A stretch of 64,000 nucleotides of DNA from Chloroflexota bacterium (GTDB taxonomy: Bacteria; Chloroflexota; Anaerolineae; Anaerolineales; UBA11579): NCBI GenBank assembly GCA_039714215.1, contig JBDLJU010000001.1:5425-69424 (forward strand). Direction: 5' to 3'. A program made the translations under genes and the position numbers. How positions within the stretch are numbered: the stretch's first letter is position 1; each line of letters begins with the position of its first letter. This document shows, piece after piece, positions 44,782-62,444 of this stretch. The notes below the pieces were generated by a model, which saw nothing but the letters and a program-made list of their open reading frames with translations, searched no databases and was not told the origin of the DNA.

Positions 44782-44797
44782 TGGCACAGACCTTGCA
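44782..44797 (+). promoter_or_regulatory. Sigma-54 (-24/-12) type promoter upstream of the 44836-53043 operon
   Basis: TGGCACagaccTTGCA matches TGGCAC-N5-TTGCA at all 11 core positions with canonical GG/GC spacing. The GC lies ~40 nt upstream of ATG 44836, and SD GGAGG is at 44826-44830. Confidence 0.6.
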
Positions 44798-44835: not shown

Positions 44836-45174
44836 ATGAACAAATTGGACACAACACAAATAATTCTCCTGGTAGATGCAGTCCTTTTCCTCTTAGGAGT
44901 GATTACTTTTATCACCGGGATCATCATTTTGGCATCGAAAGCAATGAGCCGCGATATTCGCACAATTTCCTCGCAAACGGCTCAGCTTGCCCAGAAAGGA
45001 ATCGCCGAAGACGTTGCAGGCCTGGTGGGGAATGCCTCCGCTCTGATGAACGCCCTGCAGCAAATGGTTAAAACCGCCACTGGGATCGGTGTTTTCATGG
45101 TCATGCTCGGAATCCTCCTGATCGGCGCGTCCATTTTTGTTTTCCTGAATATTAACAACTTTCCCACATTCTAA
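44836..45174 (+). CDS. Small two-TM membrane protein (hypothetical)
   Basis: 112 aa with TM1 at ~aa 8-33, an amphipathic helical middle (SSQTAQLAQKGIAEDVAGLVGNASALMNALQQMV) and TM2 at ~aa 86-105. Good SD. The next gene starts 9 nt after its stop. Confidence 0.6.
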   Translation: MNKLDTTQIILLVDAVLFLLGVITFITGIIILASKAMSRDIRTISSQTAQLAQKGIAEDVAGLVGNASALMNALQQMVKTATGIGVFMVMLGILLIGASIFVFLNINNFPTF

Positions 45175-45183
45175 GGCCTGCTG

Positions 45184-48100
45184 ATGAGTAATTTACTTGT
45201 TCAAAACCTCAAAAAATTGTTCTCCGAAGACCAATTTGGTCAGATCATTCGTGGGTTAAGGACCGATGCTGCAGTCTGGACTGCAGTCCAGGACCCAGCA
45301 ATAACAAAAAAAATGGTTGACCTTGCAGGTCCTGATCTTTCCCGCTGGACGCCAGCTTTTGCCGCCTTGACCATTTTAGGATTTTCGGACCTCTTTCCGA
45401 AGCTCAAGACGGATACTTTTTCATTGGATGAAAACCTAAAGAACCAGGCTTTGGTTGAACTTGAAAAAATCACCACTCAATCAAACGAAAACACATACCC
45501 CCTTCCAATTGAATCTGCTGTACTGGCAGCTCTTGCCCTCAGGGAACGCTGGTTGATATTAATGCAGCCAGACATTTCTGTATTTAAGGTCGAATCAAAT
45601 CTTGCTGCCTGGAAATCAGTGATTGCCTGTTTGATTGGACTATTACCCGACCCCGCAAGCCTGATAACCGATCTGCTGAACGCCAATTCCCCAAAACTGC
45701 ACACCCTGGCGATCCACGGCCTGACCACCAACCCGGCAGAAGAAGAACATCTTTCAGATGTTTTCTTGCGAGCAGCCCTCGAGCTCTCCCCGATTGCAAG
45801 GATCGACATTTTACGCCAGTGCACACAACTAAATCCCAAACTGGCAGAATTCCTGGCAATCAGATTGATCAAACAATTGGAGCTAGGAAATCGCCCTAAC
45901 AATAATCCCTTTGATAATATTCAAAATCTCGTAGAAATGTCCGAGATGCTCAAGATTACTGGTCAGTACGAGCAAGCCATTCCCGCACTTGAAAACTTAT
46001 GGCAAACCACGACCAACTTGCAAACTGACCTGACCGCTCAATTAGCCCAGGCAGCTGCGAAAAACAAGGATCAAGATTCAGCATTGTTAGCTGTTGAAAA
46101 GATCGCCAAGCTCGCAGACCAAATTCCGGTGGACGCCAGCGCTGATATTGCCCTGGCACAAATTCAAACTGGTCAGCTCGACCCCAATAATTTAGAGATT
46201 AAATCTATCCCAGCTACAAATAAACCAGAAACCCCTTCAGCCCTACTGGCTAAAGCGCAGTTGGCTGTAAAAAATAATCAACAGGACCAGGCTCAAACTT
46301 TCGCTGCCCAGGCATACGAAGCTACGATCCAATTCCTCCGCACGAAAGATACGCTGCCCTCAGACATTTCCAATACACTCACCCCCGATTTCCTTCAGGC
46401 TTTGATTGCGTGCTTGATTGAGCTGGAGCTTGCCATTGAGGCCAGTGAATTAGCTGATTCTGTTATTGCCATGCTTCCAAACCATGCGGAAATTGTGAAT
46501 TTATTCAGCCAGGCAAAATTCCTTTCTGGTGAGACGACCAAATCACTCGAAAACGCGTACGTTGCCTCTGCTTTAGAACCCAACAATCCTTTTTACCGGC
46601 GCAGCCTGATCGAAATGCTGGTGAAAATGGAACGCTGGCAGGATTCTGTCAGGGAAGCAGACGCATACCTGGCTCAACTTGATACACCCAGCACGGCTGA
46701 TATCCACCTGGTTGCCACCTGCTACCTGCACACCAAACAATATCGTGATGCTGCAATCATCGCCAACCGGGGCCTGGCATTAGAAACAGACAGCAGCGAC
46801 CTTCATGCCCTGCTCGGAAAGATCTACCAGCAGGACAATAAGACTGAAAAGGCAGTAAAACACTATAATCAGGCGATCTTGATCAGCCCCCAGACCACGG
46901 AATTCTGGTCTGATCTCGCCATGCTCTACCAGGATCAGGGGAAAGTAGAAAAAGCTGAGGAAATCCTCTTTTCTGCTTTTGAGGTGATCCCCAACAACGC
47001 CCACCTCCACCTTCAGCTAGGTCAAATCCACTGTGCAAACAACAAATCTACAGAAGCCCTCGCTGAATTCAACATTGCCCATCAATACGTTGATGTAGAG
47101 ACTACCCAAGAAACTCGGCAAGAAATCTTCACACAGCTCGGTACTCATTTACAAAATCAAGGGTATCGCCAAGAAGCACTTACCACGCTTGAGGAAGGTC
47201 ACCAGGCCTTCCCGGTGAACCCAAAAATAGCTCATCTGCTGGGAAAGTCACTCTCGGATGATGGGAGAGATCAAGAAGCATTGGCAGCTTTTGAAATTGC
47301 TTCCCAATCTAAAAAAGTAACTGCCAACCTGCTCCTGGACCACAGTAAAGCCCTGCTGGCTGTTGGCGGAAAATCAGCCGAAGCAGCGGAAAAGATTTCA
47401 CAGGCTTTGGAACTTGAGCCAAACAATCAGCTGTGCTCTCCCCTCCTGGGTGAAGCTGCTGCACAGTCCGGTGACCACCATCAGGCGATCAATATTTTCC
47501 AGAACGCTCTGCAGTCTGACCTTGCTAAAGATCCAACCTGGCAGGTAAAGCTCTCCACCAACCTGGCTAATTCAGCCTTTGAACTCAACCAACCTGAGAT
47601 TGCTATCACCTTCTTGCAGGAATCTTTACAGAAATCTCCTGACAACTTATTAGCAAAACAAACCTTATGCCAGGCTTTCATTTATACCAACCTGAACAGG
47701 GATGCCCAGAGATTGATCGAGGAAATCCTTGAACAGAATCCACAGAACCTGGAAATCCTGATGTGGGCGTCTGATCAGGCGATCAAAATCAATGATCTTG
47801 ATTATGCCTCTGAAGTTCTCAACCAGGCCAAAGAAATCGCCCCCCAGAAAGCCGACATTATGGTCCGCCTGGGATACATTCAGCTCGAAAAGGGCGAAGA
47901 AGCAGTAGCCAGAGAGACCTTTGGTCAGCTGTTCTCCGCAGAAAATGTGGACATCAGCAACCTGCGCCTCGCCGCTCAGGCCTTAATTGGTCTTGGTGAT
48001 ATTTCCAGCAGCATTCCTTATCTTGAGAAAGCGCTGGAACTCAGCGATTATAAATCCAGCGACCTGCTCCGAGAGCTGACCATCCTGCACCTGCAATCTG

Positions 48101-50469
48101 GTAATGATCAAGCTGCCCTCGAGACTGTTCAGAAACAAATCAAGATCCAGCCGATGCAGTCCAGCTTACATGTCAGCGAAGCAGATATTTTCTGCAAGCT
48201 CTCCCAACCCAATGCAGCGCTGAACAGCATGCTGAAAGCGCTCAAACTTGCCCCGGATTCTGCACCACTGCATCTCAAAACTGCCAGACTGCAACGGACA
48301 AATCACGATCTCTCGAAGAGTCTCTTCCATATCAAACGCGCTCTGCAAGCAGATGCTGCTGATCCCGAAATTCAGATCCAGGCTGCGGAGGTGCTCCAGG
48401 CATGCTTGTTAGATGAGCAAGCCTTGTCAGTGACTTCCTCGCTGCTCGAGAATGAACAGCCAAGCCCCGCAGCGCTTGTCTTGAGAGCTGAACTGCTCCT
48501 GGATCAGAGTTTTGAAAAAGACCAGGATCAAATTGAAGATTTGGTCCGGATGGCGGCCCGCTTGTCTAGCAGTGACCCCAAACTGATGGCCCTCCAATCC
48601 CGAATCGAATCCCTTTTCGGTGACTCTTATAGAGCAGAAAGTATTTTTGAACAGGCAATGCTCAATCTCTCCGCCTATGATGTCAAAGAGCTGGACGATC
48701 TATCCCTGAGCACAATAAAACTCTCCCTTGCTAAAGCTGCACTTGAGATGAAGAAATGGGATATCTCCATATACTTCTCAAAGGAAGCACAGAAGCTAAC
48801 TCCGAATGAACCCGCTCCTTATTTACTGCAGGTGATTGCCTATACAAAACGAGCTGAGGCCCATTTCCGCAGCAGAGCAATCCATATGGGCAACCCAACC
48901 TCCGTATCGATTGCCAGACACCCAATTACGATAGCAGCTTTCAACCAGGCAATCGAATCCACCGAAAGCTTTGCCCCCGCCCCATCCGCCAACAATACAC
49001 TCAGCCGCTGGCGCACACGTGGAGAGCTTGCCTTGTTGGATAAAGAGCCAGGCACATCGATTGACACATTGAGCGAAACTCCTGATGACTTTGCCGCCCT
49101 GCTGACGGCTTTTAATAAAGCAGAAATCGTCCCTGATATAGACCTCTCACGGCATCATCAATCGGCAGAGGTGATTTTCCAACGGGCACTGCTTAATTCA
49201 CAGCTGGACCCAGAACAAGCGCTCACATTGGCTGAGACTCTCGTTCAGATGACCCCCAACAACCCTGAATATGCCGCATTGTATGCCTTCCTTGCCAAAG
49301 CGGTTGGAGAAGATCAGGTTGCATTAAACAGCATCGAACACGCCATCAGGCTGGTCAGCGGCGAGTCGTTGTGGCACGCCTTAGCTGGCGAACTGCATAT
49401 GACCTTCTCCAACTACCCTGAGGCAATCAGCCACTTTGAACTGGCTCAGAAGATCGACGAAACCAACCCAGCACACAGCTTCAACCTTGGAAAAGCATAT
49501 GCAGCCAATAACTATTACGCAAAAGCGATCCCAGCCCTTGAAAAAGCTGTCGATCAAGCCCCGCTCGAGCCAGAATACTGGATTTCACTGGCGAAAACTT
49601 ATCAAAGCAGCGAGCAGGACGATTCTGCCATCGAGGCGGTCAAGAAAGCGTTGAAATTAGCGCCGAACAGCCTAAAAATCGTGCTGTCTGCGGCAGAAAT
49701 TGCCACTCAGTCTGAAACAGAAAGCGCCGTAGGCGAGAAATTGGCTGCTAAAGCCGTATCCATGGCAACCCAATCTTCCGTAGAGATCATTCAAATTTGT
49801 GAGCTGCTGGTCAAGCTCAATCAAATTGAGCAGGCGCTGGTTTACATCAACGGAAAGATCGATTTAGCCGTTGAGCAAATTCCTCTGCTGATCCAGCGGG
49901 CGAAACTGATTGGTTTACAACAAGGCAGCCAGGAAAAACTCAACCTGCTGATCGAACTCGCCAAAGAAAATTCCAAAAACCCATTGATCTTTGCTAATCT
50001 GGCCGATGCCTACATTGATACAAACAATCCTGAGGAAGCAATTCGCTCTGCCCAGTTTGCGCTCAAGTATGCCGACCAATCACTCGACCTCCCCCACCGG
50101 GCAAAGCTGCATTACCAGCTCGGCGTGCTTCTCCGTCAGTCCGGTCAGCTCGACCAGGCATTACACCAACTGACGCAAACACTGCAGCTCACCCCGAACT
50201 TCCTGGCAGCTCACCTGGAGATCGGTGAAACACTGACCCAAAGAAATGAATTCGAAAAAGCCTTAACTCATTACCAGACGGCGATTGAAATTTCGCCGAA
50301 TGACCCCAGAGCTTACAAAGAAGCTGGGATGCTGCTCAAAGAAGGAAAAGATTATCTCGGCGCAGAAACCATGTTCCGGCAAGCTTATGCCCACGATAAA
50401 AACGACCTATTCATTCAACGCCAGCTGGCGGCTGTGATCGCCCTGGCATTAATTCACCAGCCAAGGTAA
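45184..50469 (+). CDS. Giant TPR-repeat protein (1761 aa), no signal peptide
   Basis: Uninterrupted 5.3 kb ORF. From ~aa 430 onward it has recurrent 34-aa TPR-like periodicity (e.g. ALGKIYQQDNKTEKAVKHYNQAILISPQ, LAMLYQDQGKVEKAEEILFSAFEVIPNN). Confidence 0.85.
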   Translation: MSNLLVQNLKKLFSEDQFGQIIRGLRTDAAVWTAVQDPAITKKMVDLAGPDLSRWTPAFAALTILGFSDLFPKLKTDTFSLDENLKNQALVELEKITTQSNENTYPLPIESAVLAALALRERWLILMQPDISVFKVESNLAAWKSVIACLIGLLPDPASLITDLLNANSPKLHTLAIHGLTTNPAEEEHLSDVFLRAALELSPIARIDILRQCTQLNPKLAEFLAIRLIKQLELGNRPNNNPFDNIQNLVEMSEMLKITGQYEQAIPALENLWQTTTNLQTDLTAQLAQAAAKNKDQDSALLAVEKIAKLADQIPVDASADIALAQIQTGQLDPNNLEIKSIPATNKPETPSALLAKAQLAVKNNQQDQAQTFAAQAYEATIQFLRTKDTLPSDISNTLTPDFLQALIACLIELELAIEASELADSVIAMLPNHAEIVNLFSQAKFLSGETTKSLENAYVASALEPNNPFYRRSLIEMLVKMERWQDSVREADAYLAQLDTPSTADIHLVATCYLHTKQYRDAAIIANRGLALETDSSDLHALLGKIYQQDNKTEKAVKHYNQAILISPQTTEFWSDLAMLYQDQGKVEKAEEILFSAFEVIPNNAHLHLQLGQIHCANNKSTEALAEFNIAHQYVDVETTQETRQEIFTQLGTHLQNQGYRQEALTTLEEGHQAFPVNPKIAHLLGKSLSDDGRDQEALAAFEIASQSKKVTANLLLDHSKALLAVGGKSAEAAEKISQALELEPNNQLCSPLLGEAAAQSGDHHQAINIFQNALQSDLAKDPTWQVKLSTNLANSAFELNQPEIAITFLQESLQKSPDNLLAKQTLCQAFIYTNLNRDAQRLIEEILEQNPQNLEILMWASDQAIKINDLDYASEVLNQAKEIAPQKADIMVRLGYIQLEKGEEAVARETFGQLFSAENVDISNLRLAAQALIGLGDISSSIPYLEKALELSDYKSSDLLRELTILHLQSGNDQAALETVQKQIKIQPMQSSLHVSEADIFCKLSQPNAALNSMLKALKLAPDSAPLHLKTARLQRTNHDLSKSLFHIKRALQADAADPEIQIQAAEVLQACLLDEQALSVTSSLLENEQPSPAALVLRAELLLDQSFEKDQDQIEDLVRMAARLSSSDPKLMALQSRIESLFGDSYRAESIFEQAMLNLSAYDVKELDDLSLSTIKLSLAKAALEMKKWDISIYFSKEAQKLTPNEPAPYLLQVIAYTKRAEAHFRSRAIHMGNPTSVSIARHPITIAAFNQAIESTESFAPAPSANNTLSRWRTRGELALLDKEPGTSIDTLSETPDDFAALLTAFNKAEIVPDIDLSRHHQSAEVIFQRALLNSQLDPEQALTLAETLVQMTPNNPEYAALYAFLAKAVGEDQVALNSIEHAIRLVSGESLWHALAGELHMTFSNYPEAISHFELAQKIDETNPAHSFNLGKAYAANNYYAKAIPALEKAVDQAPLEPEYWISLAKTYQSSEQDDSAIEAVKKALKLAPNSLKIVLSAAEIATQSETESAVGEKLAAKAVSMATQSSVEIIQICELLVKLNQIEQALVYINGKIDLAVEQIPLLIQRAKLIGLQQGSQEKLNLLIELAKENSKNPLIFANLADAYIDTNNPEEAIRSAQFALKYADQSLDLPHRAKLHYQLGVLLRQSGQLDQALHQLTQTLQLTPNFLAAHLEIGETLTQRNEFEKALTHYQTAIEISPNDPRAYKEAGMLLKEGKDYLGAETMFRQAYAHDKNDLFIQRQLAAVIALALIHQPR

Positions 50470-50481
50470 ACAGGATAATCC

Positions 50482-53043
50482 ATGGAAAATCTAACAAGCA
50501 CTTACACCAAATCCAGAGTTATCAACCGCAGTACGCTGCTTGCCATGCTTAACGCGGCGGTCTCGACCGGAGCAACCAAATTTGCCCGCAGGGCTGCCGC
50601 GATGTGGCTGGAGGCGTTTTCCGGCGACTTGGCAGTCGAATACCAACAAGCCGCAGCGATGTTGAAAGATGACCTGGTCACAGATGCGATACCAATACTC
50701 AAACAAATTTGTTTCACTGACCCAGAATACCTGGCTGCCCAGCGTCTATTGGCATATTCAAGCGGGCACGCTCAATACTCGTCAGTGGCAACTGCCCAAG
50801 GCTGCATTGCAGCTTTAGGCGGCAGCTACCGGGGAAGCAGTCCTGCCCCTGAATGGGCTGACCTGCTGGTAAAAGCTCGTGAAGCTGAGCGCACAAAAAA
50901 TATTTCTGAAGCGCAGCAATTCTATCTAGAAGCACTCACCCTGCAGCCAAACACGCCATTACCAGCTGTGCTGCATCTGAAATTCACTGTGGAACAATAT
51001 GACTGGAAAACCAATTACAAATTAGGCGAACAGTATATTGCCCGCTGGCCTGATGCGCTCTCCTGCATCCTCACACATGCAAACACGCTCACCGCCGGCG
51101 GCGATCAAGGACAATCGGTCAGCTTACTGCATCAAGCAGCATCCCTGGACATTGGCGGGCAGGTCGCCGCCCGGTTGTGGGGCACAACCCATGCATATCT
51201 CGGCATCTGGCCGCAGAACCCCACCCTGGAATTTAACCTCCCCATCCCCGCTGAAGTAGCCGCAGTGCTGGGCTGGAATCAGCTGCCTCAGGGGAGTGAA
51301 TCCCGGAAAAAATCTTCCCGAATATTTAACTTCAAGCAAACATCAAGTGATAATACTGAAGAAGAAATCAACGTCTCAAACCAGGTAATCGAATCCGCAA
51401 AAGAAGAATTTGAAAAACTTGCGTCAAAGCTGAAAAAATCAGACCTCGGAAATGGCGATGGCCGCTTCCCAGTTTATCTGGTGATCACCTCGCAGCAGGG
51501 GCTTGAAAAACAATATGGCATCGACCAGCTGGCATCGATTGACGCCGCTCTCAAGCAAGTGGTGACAGCAACCCAGATGCTGCCCAATTGGAACTCCTAT
51601 CTGGTGTATGTCGATGAAGCCACCTCAACGGACCAATTTGGCCTCCCCCCGGCGAAAGCGAATGACGCCTGGGCAATTAAATCCCTGATTAACAAACTAG
51701 ACGAGCGTCTTGCACAGGGAGGAGAAATGATTGGTGCAATCTTGATTGTTGGTGGGCCGACGGTGGTACCCTTCCACCACCTGCCAAATCCAATTGATGA
51801 CTTTGATACCGATGTGCCTTCAGACAACCCGTATGCCAGCTCGGATGAAAATTATTTCGTGCCCACCTGGCCGATTGGCAGGCTCCCGGGCAGCGGCGAC
51901 AGCGACCCAACCGCCTTACTGCGCCAATTAGAGAAGGTGAACCGAGACCGTAGTGCCAGGATCACCCAGAACAGCCGCTCCTTCTTCCTGAGATTGTTCG
52001 ATTGGCTGCGATCAAAGATCAGCATGAATAGCAGCAAGCACAACTTCGGTTATTCTGCCGAAGTCTGGCAGCGGGCTGCACATTCTGTTTTCCGCCCGAT
52101 CGGGAAAGCGCACACCTTGATGATTTCCCCACCGACAGAAGCGGTTAATTTCGAGCGCAAGAAACAAAAACCAAGCCGTCTGGCATACTACAACCTGCAT
52201 GGGTTGGAAGATGCCCCGGAGTGGTACGGGCAGAGAGACCCGATTGAAACGATTAATGGCCCTGACTATCCGATTGCACTACGCCCTAAGGATATCCAAA
52301 ACAGCGGCAGTGCCCCGCACATTGTGTTTTCCGAAGCCTGCTTTGGAGCGAATATCTTCCAAAAGCGGATTGAGGATGCCATTGTGCTCAAGTTCCTGGA
52401 CTCAGGCACCAAGGCAGTTGTCGGCTCAACCTGCACCTCCTACGGCTCAATCGCTCCCCCGCTGATCGCCGCAGATCTCTTAGGCAAGGCATTCTGGAGC
52501 ATTCTCAAAGATGGCTACCCTGCCGGTGAAGCGCTGCGCAGAGCAAAAATCCATCTGGCGAAAGATATGAACCGCCGGCAAGGCTACCTCGATGGTGAAG
52601 ACCAGAAAACCCTGGTTTCCTTTGTGCTTTACGGCGACCCATTAGCCCAGCCTGATTTATTGAATGAGAACACCGCTGCAAAGGCTAACTTACGCCTGAC
52701 CTACGATTCAGAAAATATCCACACAGTCTGTGACAAGGTCAATCACCCCAACGAAAATTCGATCCCGCCTGAGGTGGTCAAACAGGTCAAATCTGTGGTC
52801 AACCAATATCTCCCCGGAATGAGTAATGCCCAGGTGCACTACAGCCACAGTCATGTAGAGTGCAGCGGTCACGATTGCCCCAGCAACCATATGGGCGCTA
52901 AGACTGCACCAGATCATCCCCTCACCCGCAAAGTGGTGACACTCAGCAAGAAGTATGAAAGAGGCAAGAGCACCCATCACCAACACGCACGAATAACGAT
53001 TAATGCCAAAGGCGAGATGGTAAAACTGGCAGTATCCCGCTAG
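50482..53043 (+). CDS. Helical-repeat N-domain fused to a gingipain (C25)/caspase-like clan CD His-Cys domain; His/Cys-rich tail
   Basis: 853 aa with ILIVGGPTVVPF...VPSDNPYASSD...WPIGRLPG, then YYNLHG (His573, nt 52198-52200) and IVFSEACFG (Cys620, nt 52339-52341). This is the order and context seen in C25/CHAT/caspase folds. No signal peptide. Confidence 0.6.
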   Translation: MENLTSTYTKSRVINRSTLLAMLNAAVSTGATKFARRAAAMWLEAFSGDLAVEYQQAAAMLKDDLVTDAIPILKQICFTDPEYLAAQRLLAYSSGHAQYSSVATAQGCIAALGGSYRGSSPAPEWADLLVKAREAERTKNISEAQQFYLEALTLQPNTPLPAVLHLKFTVEQYDWKTNYKLGEQYIARWPDALSCILTHANTLTAGGDQGQSVSLLHQAASLDIGGQVAARLWGTTHAYLGIWPQNPTLEFNLPIPAEVAAVLGWNQLPQGSESRKKSSRIFNFKQTSSDNTEEEINVSNQVIESAKEEFEKLASKLKKSDLGNGDGRFPVYLVITSQQGLEKQYGIDQLASIDAALKQVVTATQMLPNWNSYLVYVDEATSTDQFGLPPAKANDAWAIKSLINKLDERLAQGGEMIGAILIVGGPTVVPFHHLPNPIDDFDTDVPSDNPYASSDENYFVPTWPIGRLPGSGDSDPTALLRQLEKVNRDRSARITQNSRSFFLRLFDWLRSKISMNSSKHNFGYSAEVWQRAAHSVFRPIGKAHTLMISPPTEAVNFERKKQKPSRLAYYNLHGLEDAPEWYGQRDPIETINGPDYPIALRPKDIQNSGSAPHIVFSEACFGANIFQKRIEDAIVLKFLDSGTKAVVGSTCTSYGSIAPPLIAADLLGKAFWSILKDGYPAGEALRRAKIHLAKDMNRRQGYLDGEDQKTLVSFVLYGDPLAQPDLLNENTAAKANLRLTYDSENIHTVCDKVNHPNENSIPPEVVKQVKSVVNQYLPGMSNAQVHYSHSHVECSGHDCPSNHMGAKTAPDHPLTRKVVTLSKKYERGKSTHHQHARITINAKGEMVKLAVSR

Positions 53044-54847: not shown

Positions 54848-55843
54848 TCAGCTAACCGGAACCACCCTTAATAACTCAGCGATAATTTCATCTGGGTTAA
54901 CCTGTTCTGCCTGTGCTTCGAAATTGAGCAATATGCGGTGGCGCAGCGCTGGGAATACCACACCGTGCACATCTTCGATTGCCACCGCTTTGCGATTATC
55001 CAGCAGGGCAGCCACTTTAGCGCCCCATACAACCGCCTGTACACCGCGCGGGCTGGCCCCCACCCGCAGATGCCGGCGCACACTGTCGATTGCTTCGGGT
55101 GAATCCGGCCGGGTTGCATTGACCAGGCGAGCCACATAGCGATAAACCTGGTCAGCGATCGGGACCTGTTTTGATAGAAACTGCATGGCCATCAAGGTAC
55201 CCGCCGAGGCGACCTGCTCAGCTTTCGGAAGTTCCGCACCAGTAGTCCGCTTGGCAATCTCAACCAGCTCATCCTCACTGGGATATGGCACCTCCAGTTT
55301 GAAGAGGAAACGGTCGAGCTGCGCTTCCGGCAGCGGATAGGTTCCTTCCATTTCAATCGGATTCTGGGTTGCAAGCACAAAGAAAGGTTTTGGCAGCTGG
55401 TACAAGCTTCCTCCCACCGTAACACTGCCCTCCTGCATCGCCTCTAACAGTGCAGATTGAGTACGCGGCGCTGCACGATTAATTTCATCCGCCAATACCA
55501 AATTGGCGAACAAGGGACCTTTCTCAAATTTGAATTCTCGTTCGCCCTGCTCCGAGGTGACCAGGATTGTACTCCCGATAATATCGGCAGGCATCAGGTC
55601 AGGCGTAAACTGCACCCGGTTGTAGCTGCAATCCAGCACTTCTGCAAGGGTTTTTACCAAGATTGTTTTGCCTAAGCCAGGGACACCCTCTAACAACCCA
55701 TTCCCACCAGCAAGCAAAGTGATCAGTAAATCACGTACTAACTTTTGCTGTCCAACAATAACTTTGGACAGCTGGGCTTCAATCTGGTTCGCAGCGCTGC
55801 GATATTCTTCTATACTGATCGACATGGTTTTATTTTCACTCAT
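54848..55843 (-). CDS. MoxR-family AAA+ ATPase
   Basis: Start taken at ATG 55843 (MSENKT, SD GGAG), not 55915. Walker A is GVPGLGKT, Walker B is LADEINRA, followed by ATQNP. Confidence 0.9.
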   Translation of the reverse strand: MSENKTMSISIEEYRSAANQIEAQLSKVIVGQQKLVRDLLITLLAGGNGLLEGVPGLGKTILVKTLAEVLDCSYNRVQFTPDLMPADIIGSTILVTSEQGEREFKFEKGPLFANLVLADEINRAAPRTQSALLEAMQEGSVTVGGSLYQLPKPFFVLATQNPIEMEGTYPLPEAQLDRFLFKLEVPYPSEDELVEIAKRTTGAELPKAEQVASAGTLMAMQFLSKQVPIADQVYRYVARLVNATRPDSPEAIDSVRRHLRVGASPRGVQAVVWGAKVAALLDNRKAVAIEDVHGVVFPALRHRILLNFEAQAEQVNPDEIIAELLRVVPVS

Positions 55844-55860
55844 CTTTGTACTCCGTCTGT

Positions 55861-58440
55861 TTAAGGTCTTCGCCAGGGCATTTTCCACCGTCGGAATGCA
55901 ATTTCCAAAGGCCATAAGATTATAATTAATCCAAGCAAAATTTCAAAAGAATTCTCTTTTCCAAGCAAACTAACCTCATTTTCGGTTGAATTTTGCAGTT
56001 TTCCGAAGCTGGTCGAGTTAATACCTGGAAATTCTGTCCATTTTTGAAGCAATTCCTTGCCCACTTTCGGGGCCTTGAACTGCCATTCGACCGGATAGTT
56101 CACCGTGAATGGTACCCCAATTTCTTGTTCCTTCCCATTGATTTCGTACTGAATTACGCCGCGGTATCCGCCGAATTGCGGAATAGGAAATTCAATCTGG
56201 TACTCCCCAGGACCGATCGGCAGCATCAAAAACCTTGACGGCAGATTGGATTGATCGGTGTAGATAAATTCTGGGGCGAGATGATTGATTGGGAAACCAT
56301 CTAGATCAAAAACCTTGAAAGTCACCTGGGCTTGTTGCTGATCAACCAGCAGCTCAACTGAGGAGAAATCAAATCTTGGGTCAGGCAGCGAATATTGGAT
56401 CACCTGGCGCCAAAACTCTCCCGCCTGTGACCAGGAAACCATCCCCGGGACCCATTCAGCGCCCATATCTCCCATCCAGGCAACGACATGCCCGTGACCC
56501 ACCTGCCAGGAAGACAGCAAAGGATCATCGAAGTTCCCGGAGAGCAGGATGTCCTCAGCTCCGAAATCAACCTTGCTGGATACCGCATTGTATCCAAATA
56601 TGCGTGGAAAATTGGACATCTCAATCCCGTTTAAAACCGGATGATTCTGAATGCCTGCCACAGAATTTGTTTCCCCGACCTGAATATTTTCACTGTGAGC
56701 GGCTTTACTCTCAGAGACCATCACCCCGGGAAGGTCAGCGGGGTCAAACACCTGGTAAAAGCGCCCATTCCCTTCTTGGGCGATAAAAGACAGGGTTTCC
56801 TCATCGCTCTCGTAACCCAATGCGATCGTAGAGATGGAGATGTTTTGCCGGCGGCCGATTGCAGTCAAAATTTCAAATTTCTCAAGGGTATCCTCATCGT
56901 TATCACTGGCTCCATCCGACATGAGCAAGATGTGTTTATATTCGGTTGGTTTGGTCTCGATGATCTTGGCGAGCGCTTCCTGCAATGCCTGGCTGATCTC
57001 GGTGCCACCGCTCGCCTTGATTTGACTGACAGCATCAAGCGCTAATCGCAGGCTGATCCCATCCCCCACTTCAGTAATATCCACATCCCAATTGGTATAA
57101 CTGTTAAACGTAAGCACGCCGAGGTAATCTTCCGGCCTCAGGCTCTCAATTGCACGCGCGGCAGCTTCTTTGGTCAGCTCGATCGGGGAGATGTCACTGT
57201 CCTCGTCTTGCGCCATGCTGCCAGATCGATCAAGTACCATCACATAGGTGGTTGGGTGGCGTTCTATCCGCTCTGGAGCGGTAAGGTCAACAGGGAGCAA
57301 TGGTTCCAACCGGGTATTCTCATACCCTCCGAGATTGTAGCTATTGCGCCCACCAAGGACGACCAAAGAACGACCATAATCCAAAACAAACGATTCCAGA
57401 CTGATCATCTGTTCATAATTTAAGTCCTGAGAGAGAAGGTCGAAGAGCAGGATTGCCTGATATCCTGCGAGCTGGTCGCGGGAGGTGGTCAGGTCATAGG
57501 GAGAAACCGTATCGATCTCAAGACCCTCATCTGCCAACGCCTGCGAAAGCTTGTCTGCCGCCTGGGTGCCGCGGCTGACCAGCAAGACCTGCGGCGGTGG
57601 AAAAACCTCGATTGCAGCATAGATCGAATTGTTGTGCTCAAACTGATCATTATCTATTTTTACCGTAACGTCGACCAGCATAATCCCTGGGTCTCCGGAC
57701 CGCAATCGAATAGCCGCCAGATTGTCCCCTTGATCAACCTTAACCAATATCTCCTCTTGATAGGTTCCATTAACAGTGATGCCTACTGAAACCTGACCTG
57801 CGGCAGGAGATTGAATCGGGAGGTGGATGTTAAATTCAGAATTTTCCCACACTCCGCTGGGACCAAGAACTTCTCCCAGAATAAGATCATTTTCCATTGT
57901 TTTCCCCAGCAGATGAACGAGGGCGAAATCAACATTGTCATTGCTCATTTCGATCAGTTGTTTTTCTATTTCTGTGTGATCCAGAACCACCCCGTCAGAA
58001 GCAATGATGATCTTTCCATTCTGGCCAGAGATGAGGTCGTGAGCGGCTTCCAATGCTGCTGCCAGGTTGCTCTCCTGTGTGCCTACCTGTGGCCATTGGC
58101 CTGAAAGCATCATCCCGGGCTGTTCACCAAAGGGGATCACGATTCGTTTTGCACCACTTTCTATCCAATCTTCAGCAAAATCCCAGGCTTCATCTAATGA
58201 CTGCTGATCAATGCTATCTGAGACATCAATCAGCATAATTTCGAGGCCAGCCTGCCTGGATTGCTCCTTGCTCTGATTGAGTGCAAAATAGCTAAACAGC
58301 AAGAGAACAAGCAATCCAATCCGAACTGCTAAAGCAAATTGTCTTCGCAAAGCAATTTTTTGCGCGTACCATACCAGACCCAGCACGGCAAAGATCGATA
58401 AAACCCAGGGAGCAAACAGCTTTACCGCCATGCGCGCCAT
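55861..58440 (-). CDS. Large membrane protein with two VWA domains (BatB-like)
   Basis: 859 aa with N-terminal TMs and MIDAS DxSxS motifs at IDVSDS and LDRSGS. A C-terminal TM is followed by RRWKMPWRRP. Confidence 0.8.
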   Translation of the reverse strand: MARMAVKLFAPWVLSIFAVLGLVWYAQKIALRRQFALAVRIGLLVLLLFSYFALNQSKEQSRQAGLEIMLIDVSDSIDQQSLDEAWDFAEDWIESGAKRIVIPFGEQPGMMLSGQWPQVGTQESNLAAALEAAHDLISGQNGKIIIASDGVVLDHTEIEKQLIEMSNDNVDFALVHLLGKTMENDLILGEVLGPSGVWENSEFNIHLPIQSPAAGQVSVGITVNGTYQEEILVKVDQGDNLAAIRLRSGDPGIMLVDVTVKIDNDQFEHNNSIYAAIEVFPPPQVLLVSRGTQAADKLSQALADEGLEIDTVSPYDLTTSRDQLAGYQAILLFDLLSQDLNYEQMISLESFVLDYGRSLVVLGGRNSYNLGGYENTRLEPLLPVDLTAPERIERHPTTYVMVLDRSGSMAQDEDSDISPIELTKEAAARAIESLRPEDYLGVLTFNSYTNWDVDITEVGDGISLRLALDAVSQIKASGGTEISQALQEALAKIIETKPTEYKHILLMSDGASDNDEDTLEKFEILTAIGRRQNISISTIALGYESDEETLSFIAQEGNGRFYQVFDPADLPGVMVSESKAAHSENIQVGETNSVAGIQNHPVLNGIEMSNFPRIFGYNAVSSKVDFGAEDILLSGNFDDPLLSSWQVGHGHVVAWMGDMGAEWVPGMVSWSQAGEFWRQVIQYSLPDPRFDFSSVELLVDQQQAQVTFKVFDLDGFPINHLAPEFIYTDQSNLPSRFLMLPIGPGEYQIEFPIPQFGGYRGVIQYEINGKEQEIGVPFTVNYPVEWQFKAPKVGKELLQKWTEFPGINSTSFGKLQNSTENEVSLLGKENSFEILLGLIIILWPLEIAFRRWKMPWRRP

Positions 58441-60236
58441 GCCTCCAAAACGAGTAGAATTATCACAGATCCCAGCAGCCAGGGGGTGAGATCAACCAGG
58501 ATTTTCTGATCTTCCCAGGCGTCAATCTCTTGATCTGAAACATCCTCGGTCCACGGACGCGGACGAAGGTCACTCTCTTCGTAATCTCCCGAATTCACCC
58601 CAAAATATATTTGCCCAGTATCAGTGGGCTCGCTCGGACTATTCACTGAGTATCGACCAAATTGTCTTAGTTCGAACTCGCCTTTGTTGTCAAGCAGGGT
58701 TGAAATTCCCGCTGGATCGATGATTGTAATTCCCTCTGGCAATGATATTTGTGGGAATTTGATGATTTCGCCAATTAGATATGATTGCTCAACCTGGAAT
58801 TCGCGGTTGGTTTCGACCACATTCGAAATTAATAACGGGAAAGAAGGATGCATCGTCAGGTTCCCAACAGTCAGCTCTGGTAAAAAGACGAGGAGATTAC
58901 CAGTGGGCAGCTCAGCTTGAAGCAGGAGCGGGATTTCTCCCGCAGCAACCAAAGGATCGAATTCTGACTGCCAGAGCGGGATAGCTCTGCTTTCCTGCCA
59001 GCGGACACCGGCAAAGTCGATGTCTCCGGTAATTGGACCATAATGGATCTCAAGCGGCTGGTTGATTAAATTTACTCCCCGCACCTGGAGCAGGTCAGAA
59101 CCGGAGGGAGGGTCAAAAACCAAGATCGACCCAGCTGGCCAATCCGCAGGGAGGAATTCACGAAACACGGTCAGGTTGAACCGCGCGGAATCCCGGTACT
59201 CAAGCGGGTCGATGACCGTTAAATCCAGGTCGGGGATTGCCCGCAAGGCTCGCTCCAGCGCCCCTGGCTTTGCGGCAACCAGGGCAACGCTGAGCTTTTT
59301 CTCAGACCAATATCCTATTCCGGCGGAATTGTCCTCTAGCAGCGGGTCAGACCCACTTAGTTCAACATGCAGATAATCTGGCTCTCTATGCAGGGTCAAT
59401 GCATAAGGCTGGCTGGAATCAGGAAGCAGCTTAACTTCAGCCCGGTGGACCTCAACTCCATCTTCGATCACCCGGATTTGATGAACGCTTTCATCTGTGG
59501 AATGATTAAGGATATTTGCGTACAGTTGATAAACGCCTTCGGAAATTTTTAGCATCTGCAAATCTGTGACCGCCTGATTCGGCCAGGCTTTTCCATAAAA
59601 GTGCCAATCGATTGGAAGTTCGTACTCCCAATCATCCGCTAAATCGAAAGCACCATCGGTAAAAATATGAACCTCAACTCCCTGCTCAAATTCAAGCGTC
59701 GCTTCAGCCAGCACAAAACCAGCCTGAAGTTGGAAACCGCTTCCGCCTGCGGTTAATTCAGAAATCCGTTTGGTCAATGTTGCGCGTGAAATTTCTGAGG
59801 TATCTCCAACAAGCTCGACATCATTTCCCAAGGCAATGACCGCAATGGCTGATTGACTTTCAACACCACCGATCAGTTCAATCAAATCAGCTTTTGCAGC
59901 AGCAAACCGGCTGGGTGCCAGATCAACAGCCAACATAGAAGTTGAAGTGTCCACCAAAATAATCACCTGACGCCCTTGCCCAAAAAGCGCAGGGAGTTTA
60001 ATCTGAGGCTGGGCGAATGCCAGACTGATCGCAGCCGCGACCAACAAATCAAGCAGCAGCAGCCAACTTAATTTGATTCGCCGTGGTTTGCTGCCATGTG
60101 ATTTTTTATCCAAAAATGACCACAAGACCAGGCTGGATACATCGAAATGCTGCTTTCTCTCAAAAAAGAGGTGCAGCCCGATGATCAGGGGCAGGCTGAT
60201 CATCCCGAGGAGGCCTAACGGGTTCAAAAAGCTCAT
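58422..60236 (-). CDS. BatA-like protein (aerotolerance-regulator N-terminal domain plus VWA)
   Basis: 604 aa. The N-terminus MSFLNPLGLLGMISLPLIIGLHLFFERK is BatA-type, the MIDAS motif is VDTSTS, and there is a C-terminal TM. Confidence 0.8.
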   Translation of the reverse strand: MSFLNPLGLLGMISLPLIIGLHLFFERKQHFDVSSLVLWSFLDKKSHGSKPRRIKLSWLLLLDLLVAAAISLAFAQPQIKLPALFGQGRQVIILVDTSTSMLAVDLAPSRFAAAKADLIELIGGVESQSAIAVIALGNDVELVGDTSEISRATLTKRISELTAGGSGFQLQAGFVLAEATLEFEQGVEVHIFTDGAFDLADDWEYELPIDWHFYGKAWPNQAVTDLQMLKISEGVYQLYANILNHSTDESVHQIRVIEDGVEVHRAEVKLLPDSSQPYALTLHREPDYLHVELSGSDPLLEDNSAGIGYWSEKKLSVALVAAKPGALERALRAIPDLDLTVIDPLEYRDSARFNLTVFREFLPADWPAGSILVFDPPSGSDLLQVRGVNLINQPLEIHYGPITGDIDFAGVRWQESRAIPLWQSEFDPLVAAGEIPLLLQAELPTGNLLVFLPELTVGNLTMHPSFPLLISNVVETNREFQVEQSYLIGEIIKFPQISLPEGITIIDPAGISTLLDNKGEFELRQFGRYSVNSPSEPTDTGQIYFGVNSGDYEESDLRPRPWTEDVSDQEIDAWEDQKILVDLTPWLLGSVIILLVLEAWRAWR

Positions 60237-61195
60237 CGATTCACCAGGATATTTTTTGCCCGCAGATTTGGGAGTACCTCTCCCTCAAGAGAAGCGTTGG
60301 TATTAACCAGGGTGTAAGATACATGGTGCTCGACACATGCCATATCCAGACGTTTTTGCCAATCGGAGACCCGCTGGTGATACTTGGCCAAAGCCCTTGC
60401 AGTCAGATCGAAATTGACCTTCTTATGGGTTTCAACATCCTCCAGTTCGATAGATCCTCTGATTACCGGGGCTAATTCCTGGGGATGAAGCAGATGAACC
60501 ACGTTTACCATCCACGCAGGCGTCGGTAAACCGCCCAAAATTTCAGATAGTCTGTCCGCCTCTAGCAGATCAGATAAAATAAAAACAATCCCCCCATTCA
60601 TCACCGATGTTCTTAATTTGGTCAAAGCTTGTCCAAGGCTGGCTTCGCCTGAATAATTGAGCTGATCCAAATATCGGGCGGTGGAGTTGAATTGTCCCTT
60701 TCCAGAAATTGGCCCTAGCGCCTTATTACCTCGCCCGCCGTAGGGCTGAAGATATAATCGATCCCCATAATCCAGCGCTAAATAGGACAACATCGAGGCC
60801 AGTTTCTTTTGAAGGACTGATTTCGGCGGCGCCCCCCAATGCATTGACCCGCTGCAGTCAAGTAATATAAAAATGTTAACCGATTTAGTAAGCTCCCCTT
60901 GCCTGATGATCACGCCATCCTGGCGGGCGGATGCGCGCCAATCCACATAGCGAATATCGTCACCAGCCGTATAGCTGCGGTGCTCAATGAATTCGGTGGA
61001 TGGTTTCCGCCGGTGACTGCTGCGCGCCCCCGTCCGGCTGCCGCTCAATTCCTTGCTTGCCTGGATCTGCAGGCGGTTAAGTTGGCGGAAAATCGCTGAG
61101 CTCAAGGATGCCGAATAGCTCCTCTGAATTTCTGAGGAGCTATCAACCTGAGATCCTGGCTCTTTATTGAGGCGTAAAATACGACGAAACCACAT
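60233..61195 (-). CDS. DUF58 (VWA-like) protein
   Basis: DUF58 pattern: FIEHRSYTAGDDIRYVDW and ILLDCSGSM. The start is uncertain (ATG 61195 or TTG 61252). ATGA overlap with the BatA-like start. Confidence 0.8.
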   Translation of the reverse strand: MWFRRILRLNKEPGSQVDSSSEIQRSYSASLSSAIFRQLNRLQIQASKELSGSRTGARSSHRRKPSTEFIEHRSYTAGDDIRYVDWRASARQDGVIIRQGELTKSVNIFILLDCSGSMHWGAPPKSVLQKKLASMLSYLALDYGDRLYLQPYGGRGNKALGPISGKGQFNSTARYLDQLNYSGEASLGQALTKLRTSVMNGGIVFILSDLLEADRLSEILGGLPTPAWMVNVVHLLHPQELAPVIRGSIELEDVETHKKVNFDLTARALAKYHQRVSDWQKRLDMACVEHHVSYTLVNTNASLEGEVLPNLRAKNILVNR

Positions 61196-62444
61196 TGTTA
61201 TTTTTCCAAGAATATGAATATGAGGGCAAATCAGTTCCCTCGTTTGAGTCAAAGTTAACCCCGTCTAGATTGACCTCGTCTCCCAACACCAATACTGAAT
61301 CTGCACTGCCCCCACCCGGGACAGCCAATAAATCCGAGATATCTTCAGCGCTCTCGACCAAAACCCCCTCCCCTTCACCAGCCAGACGGGGGATTGGGGC
61401 ATCCTCATCTGTGTTGGCGTCCTGGTCTACAACCGCGTGATTATTATGATTTAGATTTCGGAGCAATTCCGCCACCTCCCCCAACGAGCGTTTGATTTGC
61501 TCAACTTCCCCGTTCTCAAGAGCTTCGGTCGCAGCGCTAAAAACATCAGTGATCGATTGATACTTCGAGAGGTACAGCTCCCTCACCAATCCATTGAATT
61601 GGTCTGCAACCAGGAGATGAGTATTTGTTGACAGGCGGCCAGCATTCTCTGAAATCAAATCCAGCTGCTTTGCCGCTTTGGAAAGATTTCCTTTTGTCAA
61701 AGCAGTTCCGAAACCAGCAGTGGCAGTATTATTCAAAAGCCCTTCGCCAACATGTTTTAATGCCTCCATTATTTTTTCATTTTCTTCTGGAGTGAACTCG
61801 ACAAGATCCCCACCAGCAACCGTCTCAGCCTGAAGAGCAGCTGTCCGGGAGATTGGAGATTGGCCGGGGATCCCCGAAGGAAAAACATCCAAGAAACCAG
61901 GCTCGCTTCCCAAACCGGGGAGCAAACTTATCTCAGATCCAGTCACCACAGAATCGAATAAATCCAATCCTGAAAGGTTGATCGTCGCCAGCAGTAAAAC
62001 CACAACGACGAGGGCTTCCAGATCATTGCGGAGCCGCCAACCTTTTTTCAATACTCGACGGATCAGCTCCGGGAGCAAAATTGCAGTCTCCTGCAGGAGG
62101 GCAGTATTTAGCTCATTTTGTGTGAATGAAACTTCTTTTTCGGATTCGGAAACTTGATAAGAGGTGGAGATTTGTTCCTGCAGTTCAAGTTTTCGATCGA
62201 CCCGCCACAGGAAATCGGAGAATTTAACTGGTTTAACCAACAGCGTCAGTAGAGAGATCAGTCCGGCGGCTGCCGAGATCAACAGCCAATAATCAGGGTT
62301 ATCCAGCTGGCCGCTAAAAGTGTTTATCCCCCAACAGAAAATGTAAACTGCTCCGCTGATCCAGGCGCTGCGCACCAGCAGGCGGATTGCCTTCTGAGCT
62401 ACAGCCAGGCAGTAAAGCCATCGGAAGCGACTTGATAGTTTCAT
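61164..62444 (-). CDS. Membrane protein of the MoxR/VWA operon (hypothetical)
   Basis: 426 aa with two N-terminal TM helices, a third near aa 145, and an acidic C-terminal half. 4-nt overlap with the upstream gene. Confidence 0.55.
   Translation of the reverse strand: MKLSSRFRWLYCLAVAQKAIRLLVRSAWISGAVYIFCWGINTFSGQLDNPDYWLLISAAAGLISLLTLLVKPVKFSDFLWRVDRKLELQEQISTSYQVSESEKEVSFTQNELNTALLQETAILLPELIRRVLKKGWRLRNDLEALVVVVLLLATINLSGLDLFDSVVTGSEISLLPGLGSEPGFLDVFPSGIPGQSPISRTAALQAETVAGGDLVEFTPEENEKIMEALKHVGEGLLNNTATAGFGTALTKGNLSKAAKQLDLISENAGRLSTNTHLLVADQFNGLVRELYLSKYQSITDVFSAATEALENGEVEQIKRSLGEVAELLRNLNHNNHAVVDQDANTDEDAPIPRLAGEGEGVLVESAEDISDLLAVPGGGSADSVLVLGDEVNLDGVNFDSNEGTDLPSYSYSWKNNNVVSSYFTPQ

Follow-up and report, generated by a model that had tools for sequence, protein, structure and literature searches.

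A conserved Anaerolineae gene trio for a small membrane protein, a TPR scaffold and a gingipain-like peptidase, with apparent sigma-54 control and a possible link to cell division

The three-gene locus and its products

In the window, by which we mean the whole 64-kb stretch of DNA that was analysed, three genes follow one another closely on the plus strand behind a candidate sigma-54 promoter.

44782-44797, + strand: putative sigma-54 -24/-12 promoter TGGCACagaccTTGCA, ~39 nt upstream of the ATG of the small gene
44836-45174, + strand: gene 1, small-protein gene, 112 aa (open reading frame and translation)
45184-50469, + strand: gene 2, TPR scaffold gene, 1761 aa (open reading frame and translation)
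50482-53043, + strand: gene 3, peptidase gene, 853 aa (open reading frame and translation)

The gaps between the abutting open reading frames are 9 nt (genes 1 and 2) and 12 nt (genes 2 and 3), in keeping with the tight three-gene operon described in an earlier note on this DNA, and independent gene calls in relatives likewise make the trio genes abut or overlap. The 3' limit of the operon is given by a convergent Metallophos gene, which overlaps the peptidase stop codon by 4 nt. The neighbours in the window are housekeeping genes (the pur operon, relA, ligA and proS, the last of these upstream of the trio), and an Rfam scan of the window returned three tRNAs only. Neither ftsZ nor rpoN nor the activator gene discussed below is found within the 64 kb. 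The earlier note had also remarked on the lack of a CRISPR, nuclease or NTPase partner, and indeed we found no CRISPR array, gRAMP/Cas7-11 or Csx30/31 in the window or in the inspected flanks of related loci, and no sensor NTPase, nuclease or toxin partner for the trio in the window by Pfam and NCBIfam searches. The downstream Metallophos gene, S41 protease and MoxR/VWA Bat-like operon were rejected as partners of the trio, with co-occurrence in just 10/58 and 4/58 loci, as was proS as a conserved neighbour, with linkage in 0 loci.

The three genes keep their order and their common strand in 61/61 related loci that reach far enough upstream, with the scaffold gene between genes 1 and 3 in every one of them, and this constancy makes the arrangement more than chance. 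The peptidase occurs in at least 559 species genomes of Anaerolineae, and its copies across the class share 40-55% identity. The trio is thus a class-wide core, syntenic and apparently single-locus unit of filamentous Anaerolineae. Its co-occurrence beyond close relatives, a check that the earlier note had named, is answered by these counts, while the suggestion made there that it might sit in variable regions does not hold for a core unit with housekeeping neighbours.

The 112-aa product of gene 1, for which Pfam and NCBIfam gave no family match, has two hydrophobic segments, at residues ~9-33 and ~83-104, which enclose a loop of 52 residues. This loop (LAQKGIAEDVAGLVGNAS) is the best-conserved part of the protein in an alignment of 60 homologs, and its flanks are enriched in positive charge, with K+R counts over these homologs of 3.7 vs 0.25 and 0.38 in the two tails. 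Because of this enrichment, the positive-inside rule suggests that the loop of the two-TM hairpin protein faces the cytoplasm, and we propose that the gene 1 product is a membrane anchor.

The 1761-aa protein, previously taken for a TPR scaffold, matches many TPR families of Pfam and NCBIfam (TPR_2, 5e-57; TPR_19, 6e-51; TPR_14, TPR_1, TPR_16 and others) and deserves that name. The matches cover residues ~410 to 1760, and the N-terminal ~400 residues match neither TPR nor any other family in the two collections. When compared with 55 orthologs, the protein is collinear at merely 20-30% identity, and its best-conserved stretch, residues 1641-1760, reaches 40-48%. An N-terminal hydrophobic signal is absent, by inspection, from both the scaffold and the peptidase. 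Judged by its sequence, the scaffold is a cytoplasmic TPR solenoid.

The 853-aa product of gene 3 can be divided as follows.

50515-51276, + strand: N-terminal TPR-like helical domain, residues ~12-265 (AF2, weak TPR matches)
51277-51456, + strand: variable, probably disordered linker, residues ~266-325 (alignment, pLDDT <50)
51457-52656, + strand: predicted clan CD catalytic core of two subdomains, residues ~326-725 (alignment, model, Foldseek)
52198-52200, + strand: codon of the predicted catalytic His573, in YYNLHG (alignment and model)
52339-52341, + strand: codon of the predicted catalytic Cys620, in SEACFG (alignment and model)
52759-53040, + strand: C-terminal ~95-residue alpha/beta domain, residues ~760-853 (hhalign, alignment, translation)

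The N-terminal domain is predicted to form helical hairpins (pLDDT 85-95 in the full-length AF2 model), and it gives weak TPR_14/TPR_2 matches as well as TPR matches in a PDB profile search. In homologs, the linker takes up insertions of up to ~200 residues. The C-terminal domain carries an insert, HxxCxGHxCP (H791, C794, H797 and C799; nt 52852-52878), whose Cys and His residues are conserved at 90% or above. The core contains the invariant motifs LPNPxDDxDxDVPSDNPYA, NLHG, SEAC[FY]GA and GYLDGEDQKT, and both His573 and Cys620 are invariant in alignments of 32 and of 120 homologs.

Two AF2 models were made, one of the full-length protein from 32 sequences, which was poor around the dyad, and one of residues 319-853 from 120 sequences, with a pLDDT of 84 and a pTM of 0.89. 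In the predicted model, H573-G574 directly follows strand 567-571 and C620 directly follows strand 614-617, which is the order expected for clan CD, namely His-Gly before Cys with each at the C-terminal end of a beta-strand. Foldseek returned six PDB matches at E<=1e-3, all of them clan CD (two each for Kgp, Csx29 and separase), with gingipain K at the top (1.6e-10) and Csx29 (TPR-CHAT) and separase next. When the PDB was searched by sequence, the single protein and two profiles gave TPR matches only, or nothing, and the clan CD assignment therefore rests on the fold together with HMM matches of family members. The window copy itself has no match at threshold in Pfam or NCBIfam, and no peptidase HMM match even at E<=10. 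Its homologs number more than 1099, with precomputed Peptidase_C25 matches described as 'faint' or 'weak', and when the domain alone was used as query for 14 family members, 7/14 matched Pfam Peptidase_C25 (best 4.4e-14) and 6/14 matched CHAT (weak). By sequence, the family is a divergent C25 (PF01364) relative, at or beyond the edge of that family. Taken by its predicted fold, the gene 3 product is a cysteine peptidase of the gingipain-like kind (clan CD, related to C25). The clan CD His-Cys domain that the earlier note had seen in it is borne out by the Foldseek matches and the invariant dyad, and the check named there for a non-protease fold turned up a predicted model matching the protease fold instead.

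Sigma-54 promoters and the ftsZ neighbourhood in relatives

The site TGGCACagaccTTGCA is a perfect match to the sigma-54 consensus used here (TGGCAC-N5-TTGCA, with the -24 GG and -12 GC), and it is the sole perfect one in the window. No sigma-70-like site was seen between proS and the small gene, and an Rfam scan of the promoter region gave no riboswitch or leader RNA. Equivalent sites, for which up to 2 mismatches were allowed provided that the GG/GC core was intact, are present in 43/61 related loci, most of them between -39 and -71, as compared with 3/61 control intragenic regions. The remaining 18 loci without a site of their own all have a sigma-54-driven p447-ftsZ cluster directly upstream on the same strand. 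Sigma-54 control of the trio, which had been put forward as apparent from the window, is therefore supported by a predicted promoter at a conserved distance in most loci.

The presumptive regulators can be seen in relatives, 18/61 of whose loci have rpoN, a PAS histidine kinase gene and the gene for an NtrC-type activator immediately upstream of the trio. The kinase is cytoplasmic and PAS-containing, and the activator consists of REC, sigma-54 AAA+ and lid domains and ends without an HTH DNA-binding domain. The same type of promoter also precedes rpoN, ftsZ and p447, a gene specific to this lineage, in relatives. In six loci fetched around p447 (L082-L087), the sigma-54 sites with at most 1 mismatch each stand a short way upstream of one of four genes, namely rpoN, p447, ftsZ and the small gene, the sole exception being a 1-mismatch site on the minus strand in L086.

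The trio directly follows a p447-ftsZ-p89-(p92)-p258 cluster on the same strand in 21/61 loci. The identity of FtsZ is confirmed by Tubulin and FtsZ_C matches and a DIPAFLRR tail. Sigma-54 promoters of this cluster are placed in front of p447 and of ftsZ; those of ftsZ, with 0-1 mismatch, are present in 15/15 loci where upstream DNA was available, no more than ~170 nt from the called start and for the most part 36-62 nt upstream of it. The entire cluster from rpoN to the peptidase gene, 11-12 genes, is found on three long contigs (L082, L085 and L087), and in L077 the order is different, with p447-ftsZ-p89 located downstream of the peptidase gene behind a perfect sigma-54 site. In all, about two thirds of the related loci have the trio contiguous with ftsZ, with rpoN and the two-component system, or with both, and it adjoins neither ftsZ nor rpoN in about one third of lineages, that of the window included.

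A further connection comes from p89, the gene just after ftsZ, whose product aligns with the C-terminal domain of the peptidase (hhalign probability 94.7%, E 6e-8, 80 columns). On this alignment, the stand-alone p89 is a paralog of the peptidase C-terminal domain. For p447 we obtained no Pfam match and no PDB relative by profile search. By eye, p89 and the C-terminal domain look PepSY-like, a resemblance for which Pfam and PDB profile searches gave no support.

Possible functions of the trio

Our best explanation, in which we place middling confidence, is that the trio forms a membrane-tethered cytoplasmic TPR scaffold-protease complex belonging to a sigma-54-controlled division gene set of Anaerolineae. 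We infer the link to cell division from genomic context only, and we favour it because of the same-strand adjacency to ftsZ in 21/61 loci, the downstream adjacency in L077, the shared promoter type and the paralogy of p89. In such a complex, the TPR solenoid (~1800 residues) would dock on the loop of the small protein, probably via its best-conserved C-terminal repeats, and would recruit the peptidase through the TPR-like domain at the N-terminus of the latter; specific interfaces of the scaffold are uncertain since this protein is weakly conserved (20-30% identity). The peptidase would be an active gingipain-like His/Cys enzyme, as the invariant dyad suggests, and its C-terminal domain and p89 would probably bind a common partner at the division site, possibly FtsZ or another divisome component. 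Placed at the septum, the complex may then combine scaffolding with site-specific proteolysis, by which a division or septal protein would be matured, released or removed.

Linkage and co-regulation with ftsZ could, however, reflect a shared regulator instead of a shared process. The corresponding alternative, to our minds possible if somewhat unlikely, is that the trio is a sigma-54-regulated proteolysis or scaffolding module, of the cytoplasm or the membrane, outside division (envelope, sheath, exopolymer, stress or protein quality control) that shares just its regulator with ftsZ, and that the nearness of the two comes from the clustering of sigma-54 targets at regulator genes. That the trio has its own sigma-54 promoter, that it is unlinked from ftsZ in many lineages, the window included, and that in L082 a strong terminator-like hairpin splits p258 from the small gene would all fit such a module, as would comparative work that gives sigma-54 a general role in controlling the bacterial exterior (PMC3162934). 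It accounts less readily for a paralog of the peptidase C-terminal domain directly after ftsZ, for the 18 loci in which a trio lacking its own promoter stands behind a same-strand ftsZ cluster, or for the strong sites of L082-L087, which with one exception precede rpoN, p447, ftsZ or the trio. Even so understood, the trio remains a clean target of sigma-54 throughout the class.

A bolder form of the division hypothesis, which we think unlikely as a whole, would put Anaerolineae division under a dedicated, self-activating sigma-54/two-component circuit that drives ftsZ, the lineage-specific genes p447, p89, p92 and p258, and the trio. The trio, as a giant TPR platform anchored in the membrane and bearing a gingipain-like protease, would then be a bacterial 'separase-like' factor, cleaving a divisome or septal-junction component to finish septation or to set filament breakage.

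The earlier note had drawn attention to conflict and programmed-death biology, and a TPR-CHAT-like module whose protease responds to a danger signal by killing the cell or halting its growth would be consistent with the TPR plus clan CD architecture and the Foldseek matches to Csx29 (E ~1e-4), both of which recall Craspase, and with hosts that are multicellular filaments; a variant in which developmentally programmed death of single cells fragments the filaments would even suit the division link. We consider this improbable, since patchy, fast-evolving defence genes are unlike a universal, syntenic trio found in at least 559 species, with a peptidase 40-55% identical among them, housekeeping neighbours, co-regulation with ftsZ and no sensor NTPase, nuclease, CRISPR or toxin partner. 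PADLOC gave no match for the peptidase or the small protein and, for the scaffold, generic TPR similarity only, in a PDC-M71B stretch (1e-9). A class-wide core unit that is so often contiguous with rpoN or ftsZ does not sustain the suggestion.

Lastly, a purely structural trio with a non-catalytic pseudo-protease, towards which the missing peptidase HMM match of the window protein and the poor first model might point, is about as improbable, given that pseudo-enzymes normally lose the catalytic dyad, whereas here neither His573-Gly and Ala-Cys620 nor several motifs flanking them vary among 120 homologs, the model from the deeper alignment is confident, and the significant PDB matches are all clan CD peptidases or domains (Kgp, Csx29 and separase).

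Relation to known systems and significance

Gingipains are secreted virulence proteases with a signal peptide, a propeptide and a T9SS C-terminal domain. The closest structural likeness of the peptidase is to the C25 enzyme Kgp of Porphyromonas gingivalis (PDB 4rbm and 6i9a; Foldseek E 1.6e-10, TM 0.45-0.52), with which the predicted model shares a two-subdomain alpha/beta core followed by a small beta-rich domain, and a His-Gly...Cys dyad after beta-strands. Sequence identity to gingipain is ~12%, however, with the window copy below all HMM thresholds. The peptidase further differs in having, by inspection, no signal peptide, propeptide or T9SS domain and a predicted cytoplasmic location, and in carrying an N-terminal TPR-like domain and a p89-like C-terminal domain with the Cys/His insert.

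Csx29 of the type III-E Craspase (8eey_B and 7y84_C; E ~1e-4) likewise combines N-terminal TPR with clan CD protease at the C-terminus, and a large partner presumably controls the protease there as well as in the trio. The trio, in contrast, comes without gRAMP/Cas7-11, CRISPR array or Csx30/31, its partners being the 1761-aa TPR and 2-TM proteins, and it is a core gene set under sigma-54 and linked to ftsZ rather than a mobile defence locus. Separase, a eukaryotic enzyme that cleaves cohesin and is tied to the division cycle, also joins a large helical-repeat scaffold to a clan CD protease (9hma and 5u1t; E 1.5e-4 to 6e-4). A similar tie is apparent for the trio on account of its ftsZ linkage, but separase has scaffold and protease in one polypeptide, while the trio has them as separate proteins and lacks a securin-like partner. 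The resemblance implies no homology beyond clan CD.

Cyanobacterial ZipN/Ftn2 is a TPR-containing FtsZ tether, a single protein with DnaJ, TPR and TM parts. The trio may be likened to it in concept, as a lineage-specific membrane-associated TPR protein found with FtsZ in filamentous or multicellular bacteria; it differs in that anchor, scaffold and protease are separate proteins, and FtsZ binding by the trio is putative. On the regulatory side, Chlamydia CtcB/CtcC and Helicobacter FlgS/FlgR offer a parallel. CtcC and FlgR are listed as truncated sigma-54 activators without a DNA-binding domain (PMC3162934), and the activator of the relatives is equally truncated, goes with a cytoplasmic PAS kinase and is encoded beside rpoN. 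Instead of the flagellar or chlamydial late genes of those systems, the apparent targets here are the trio, p447 and ftsZ, and the regulator genes lie outside the window.

Anaerolineae are abundant filamentous bacteria of sediments, digesters and activated sludge, and cell division in Chloroflexota is almost unstudied. A 2025 preprint on Litorilinea states that there had been no earlier live-cell imaging of filament growth and division for the phylum (10.1101/2025.08.19.671072). Our literature search found no description of the trio, in agreement with its earlier designation as an undescribed system, and no report of sigma-54-dependent ftsZ. If the division hypothesis is true, ftsZ would be transcribed from sigma-54 promoters, and division would be a signal-gated decision, because a two-component system has to activate such promoters in an ATP-dependent step. 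The tools of bacterial division would come to include a clan CD protease with a TPR scaffold of 1,800 residues, and the scaffold-plus-caspase-fold logic of separase and Craspase would be echoed in a housekeeping role. The same hypothesis would give a testable functional context to at least seven conserved proteins now called 'hypothetical', namely the small anchor, the TPR protein, the peptidase, p447, p89, p92 and p258.

Operon structure and distribution of the trio

The three genes abut on the forward strand, with intergenic gaps of 9 and 12 nt. They follow a 300-nt intergenic region that is common to the divergent proS, and at the other end the last 4 nt of the operon are overlapped by a convergent Metallophos gene:

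44782-44797: sigma-54 -24/-12 element TGGCACagaccTTGCA, a perfect match to the consensus
44836-45174, + strand: ORF of the small protein, 112 aa
45184-50469, + strand: ORF of the TPR protein, 1761 aa
50482-53043, + strand: ORF of the peptidase, 853 aa

The element TGGCACagaccTTGCA is the sole perfect sigma-54 match within the 64 kb of the window, and no sigma-70-like site was found in the proS/small-gene intergenic region. With the pur operon, ychF, relA, moeA, glgC, ligA, proS and three tRNAs among its genes, the window is ordinary core chromosome.

In a scan of one genome per species, relatives of the peptidase were found in at least 559 genomes, and all 80 loci that we fetched came from Anaerolineae or Chloroflexota MAGs, the hosts including Anaerolinea, Leptolinea, Brevefilum and Aquidulcis. 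Sixty-one of the 80 loci (60 of them independent) reached far enough upstream to display the whole trio. The small gene, the TPR gene and the peptidase gene followed each other in this order on one strand in 61/61. The TPR gene encodes 1300-2100 aa in these loci, a few calls being split, and in independent gene calls the trio genes abut or overlap. The downstream genes of the window (Metallophos, S41 protease, MoxR/VWA) rarely stay with the trio (10/58 and 4/58 loci) and proS does so in no locus, so that the trio itself is the unit. It is a core module found across the class rather than a set of island genes.

The three proteins

The small protein has a 52-residue loop flanked by two hydrophobic segments, and this loop (..LAQKGIAEDVAGLVGNAS..) is its best-conserved part among 60 homologs. 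Lysine and arginine are concentrated in the flanks of the loop, with a K+R count of 3.7 versus 0.25 and 0.38 in the tails, a bias that assigns the loop to the cytoplasm. The 1761-aa protein is a TPR solenoid (TPR_2 at 5e-57, among other matches) that is collinear with its orthologs yet only 20-30% identical to them, the most conserved part being the final 120 residues (40-48%).

The peptidase has the same sequence as MEN8240320.1, which is annotated as 'hypothetical protein' in a Chloroflexota MAG. It has no match of its own in Pfam or NCBIfam, and no PDB relative was found by sequence. Its family is large and homogeneous: one search gave more than 1099 matches, and a separate one gave 527 clusters at 50% identity (E<1e-30). 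The best 150 matches are mostly 830-1120 aa long with the domain at the same place; the dozen or so shorter entries are probably fragmentary. Invariant in the family are His573 (NLHG), Cys620 (SEAC[FY]GA), the Asp-rich motif LPNPxDDxDxDVPSDNPYA at residues 434-452, and GYLDGEDQKT.

In a first AF2 model, only the N-terminal TPR-like domain (residues 12-265) and one half of the core came out well, while a second, covering residues 319-853 and built with 120 sequences, reached a pLDDT of 84 and a pTM of 0.89. When the second model was compared with the PDB by Foldseek, 6/6 matches with E<=1e-3 were clan CD, namely gingipain K (1.6e-10), the TPR-CHAT protein Csx29 and separase. In this model His573 and Cys620 each directly follow a beta-strand, the canonical clan CD layout, and Pfam searches with 14 family members gave Peptidase_C25 in 7/14 (best 4e-14) and CHAT in 6/14. 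The clan CD fold that had been proposed from the sequence alone is therefore right. As for family, this is a divergent relative of C25, fused to a TPR-like domain and predicted to be cytoplasmic, not a gingipain.

The linker from the TPR-like domain to the peptidase core (window 51277-51456; columns 300-600 of A1, our alignment of peptidase homologs) varies from ~55 to >250 residues, and in some homologs (e.g. P0075, 1070 aa) it carries low-complexity, repeat-like inserts.

Sigma-54 control, linkage to ftsZ and the likely role of the trio

Sigma-54 sites were counted when the GG/GC core was intact and no more than two mismatches were present. By this measure 43/61 loci have a site before the small gene, for the most part at -39 to -71, as against only 3/61 control stretches. 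All 18 loci that lack a promoter of their own before the small gene have the cluster p447 - ftsZ - p89 - (p92) - p258 directly upstream on the same strand, an arrangement seen in 21/61 loci altogether. The assignment of ftsZ is secure (Tubulin and FtsZ_C matches, DIPAFLRR tail). Its four lineage-specific neighbors, flanking ftsZ where ftsA, ftsQ or sepF-type genes usually sit, have no Pfam match, and the hydrophobic segments of p92 and p258 look like single membrane anchors. About 1710 homologs of p447 were found, and all those with a source name are 'hypothetical'. In the following, L numbers denote related loci fetched from other genomes:

L073:202-1545, 2750-3019, 2989-3267 and 3277-4053: p447, p89, p92 and p258
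L073:1509-1524, L082:11371-11386, L015:1483, L019:1240, L020:2073, L034:5: ftsZ promoter in p447
L035:2972-4147, L077:3283-4458, L082:6954-8117: activator gene (15 more loci carry it)
L082:3290-3305, L085:3508-3523: perfect sigma-54 sites 50-116 nt upstream of rpoN

In all 15 loci for which the DNA before ftsZ is available, a sigma-54 site (0-1 mismatch) is found no more than ~170 nt from the called start of ftsZ, mostly 36-62 nt 5' of it, and seven loci have such a site ~40 nt 5' of p447. The ftsZ promoter TGGCACAAGTATTGCA falls within the final codons of p447 (GAT GGC ACA AGT ATT GCA = D G T S I A), whose 3' end is thus dual-use coding and promoter DNA; the GDGTSIA motif occurs in 77/126 p447 homologs. 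The codons are the same or nearly so in most loci, in proteins ~50% identical, and this constancy of codon choice argues for selection on the DNA itself.

In 18/61 loci a gene for an NtrC-type activator (~390 aa; REC, Sigma54_activat and lid) lies directly upstream of the trio on the same strand, with the trio promoter in the 50-140-nt gap 3' of it. The activator ends without an HTH, and in this it resembles CtcC of Chlamydia and FlgR of Helicobacter, which likewise lack a DNA-binding domain (PMC3162934); sigma-54 itself has been reported in only some Chloroflexi (PMC3162934). Further 5' are a gene for a ~650-aa PAS HisKA/HATPase kinase, without a TM segment in the L082 copy that was inspected, and rpoN. 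The perfect sites before rpoN in L082 and L085 point to autoregulation and suggest that rpoN, kinase and activator genes form a self-activating operon.

The genes of L077 are arranged as rpoN - kinase - activator - trio - [perfect sigma-54 site] - p447 - ftsZ - p89. Among the loci fetched around p447, the long contigs L082, L085 and L087 contain the whole cluster from rpoN through the peptidase, and L083, L084 and L086 contain p447-ftsZ-p89-p92 without the trio. All but one of the sigma-54 sites (at most one mismatch) in these six lie just 5' of rpoN, p447, ftsZ or the small gene, the lone exception being a one-mismatch site on the minus strand of L086. Lastly, hhalign matched the p89 family to the C-terminal ~95 residues of the peptidase (probability 94.7%, E 6e-8, 80 columns), where the peptidase has an extra HxxCxGHxCP insert.

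In Leptolinea/Anaerolinea-type loci (L048:9945, L051:9936, L053:9908, L060:9918, L072:9905), a sigma-54-like site with one mismatch, TGGCGCGATTATTGCA, recurs within the 3' end of the TPR gene, at a distance of 25-60 nt from the peptidase gene that follows; no counterpart occurs in the window. The site may be an internal promoter, or else conserved coding sequence that happens to match.

Taken together, the common promoter type, the position next to ftsZ and rpoN on the same strand and the paralogy with p89 make it most likely that the trio is part of a division gene set under sigma-54 control in Anaerolineae; for an actual association with division we see about an even chance. The hairpin anchor, TPR platform and clan CD protease would probably form a membrane-tethered cytoplasmic complex, which probably acts on a division-site protein. 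Operon structure, conservation of the promoter, linkage, fold, the invariant dyad, the topology bias and the paralogy of the domains are observed, and the complex itself, its action at the septum, its substrate and any contact with FtsZ are inferred. A module with a role other than division, having the regulator alone in common with the division genes, we regard as possible though rather unlikely. The earlier note's conflict or cell-death module is not supported, given the spread over at least 559 genomes, the intact trios and a PADLOC search that returned nothing specific for them, and is very improbable, as is a pseudo-protease, given a family-invariant dyad.

The TPR and clan CD folds are already known, and Craspase and separase already pair a helical scaffold with a caspase-fold protease. 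What is new is the predicted membrane-anchored arrangement of three proteins, its housekeeping status throughout the class, the sigma-54/two-component control dedicated to it and the tie to ftsZ, none of which we found described in a literature search.

Other features of the window

The only other sigma-54 near-match of the window (28524, + strand, one mismatch) is probably due to chance. It falls within a 687-aa ORF (27252-29315, - strand) that has no Pfam match and adjoins tRNA-Leu and tRNA-Met. A Bat-like aerotolerance-type operon (54848-63904, - strand) encodes a MoxR AAA+ ATPase, an 859-aa VWA protein, a BatA-N/VWA protein, DUF58 and two unassigned ORFs, and is syntenic with the trio in the closest relatives only (4/58 loci). 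Between the pur operon and a CBS/ACT gene, 15357-20127 holds three ORFs: a phage-type integrase (18913-20127), a 756-aa protein with lamin-tail (LTD) and Big_7 domains, and a 257-aa ORF without a Pfam match. No tRNA adjoins this stretch, which may be a small integrated element.
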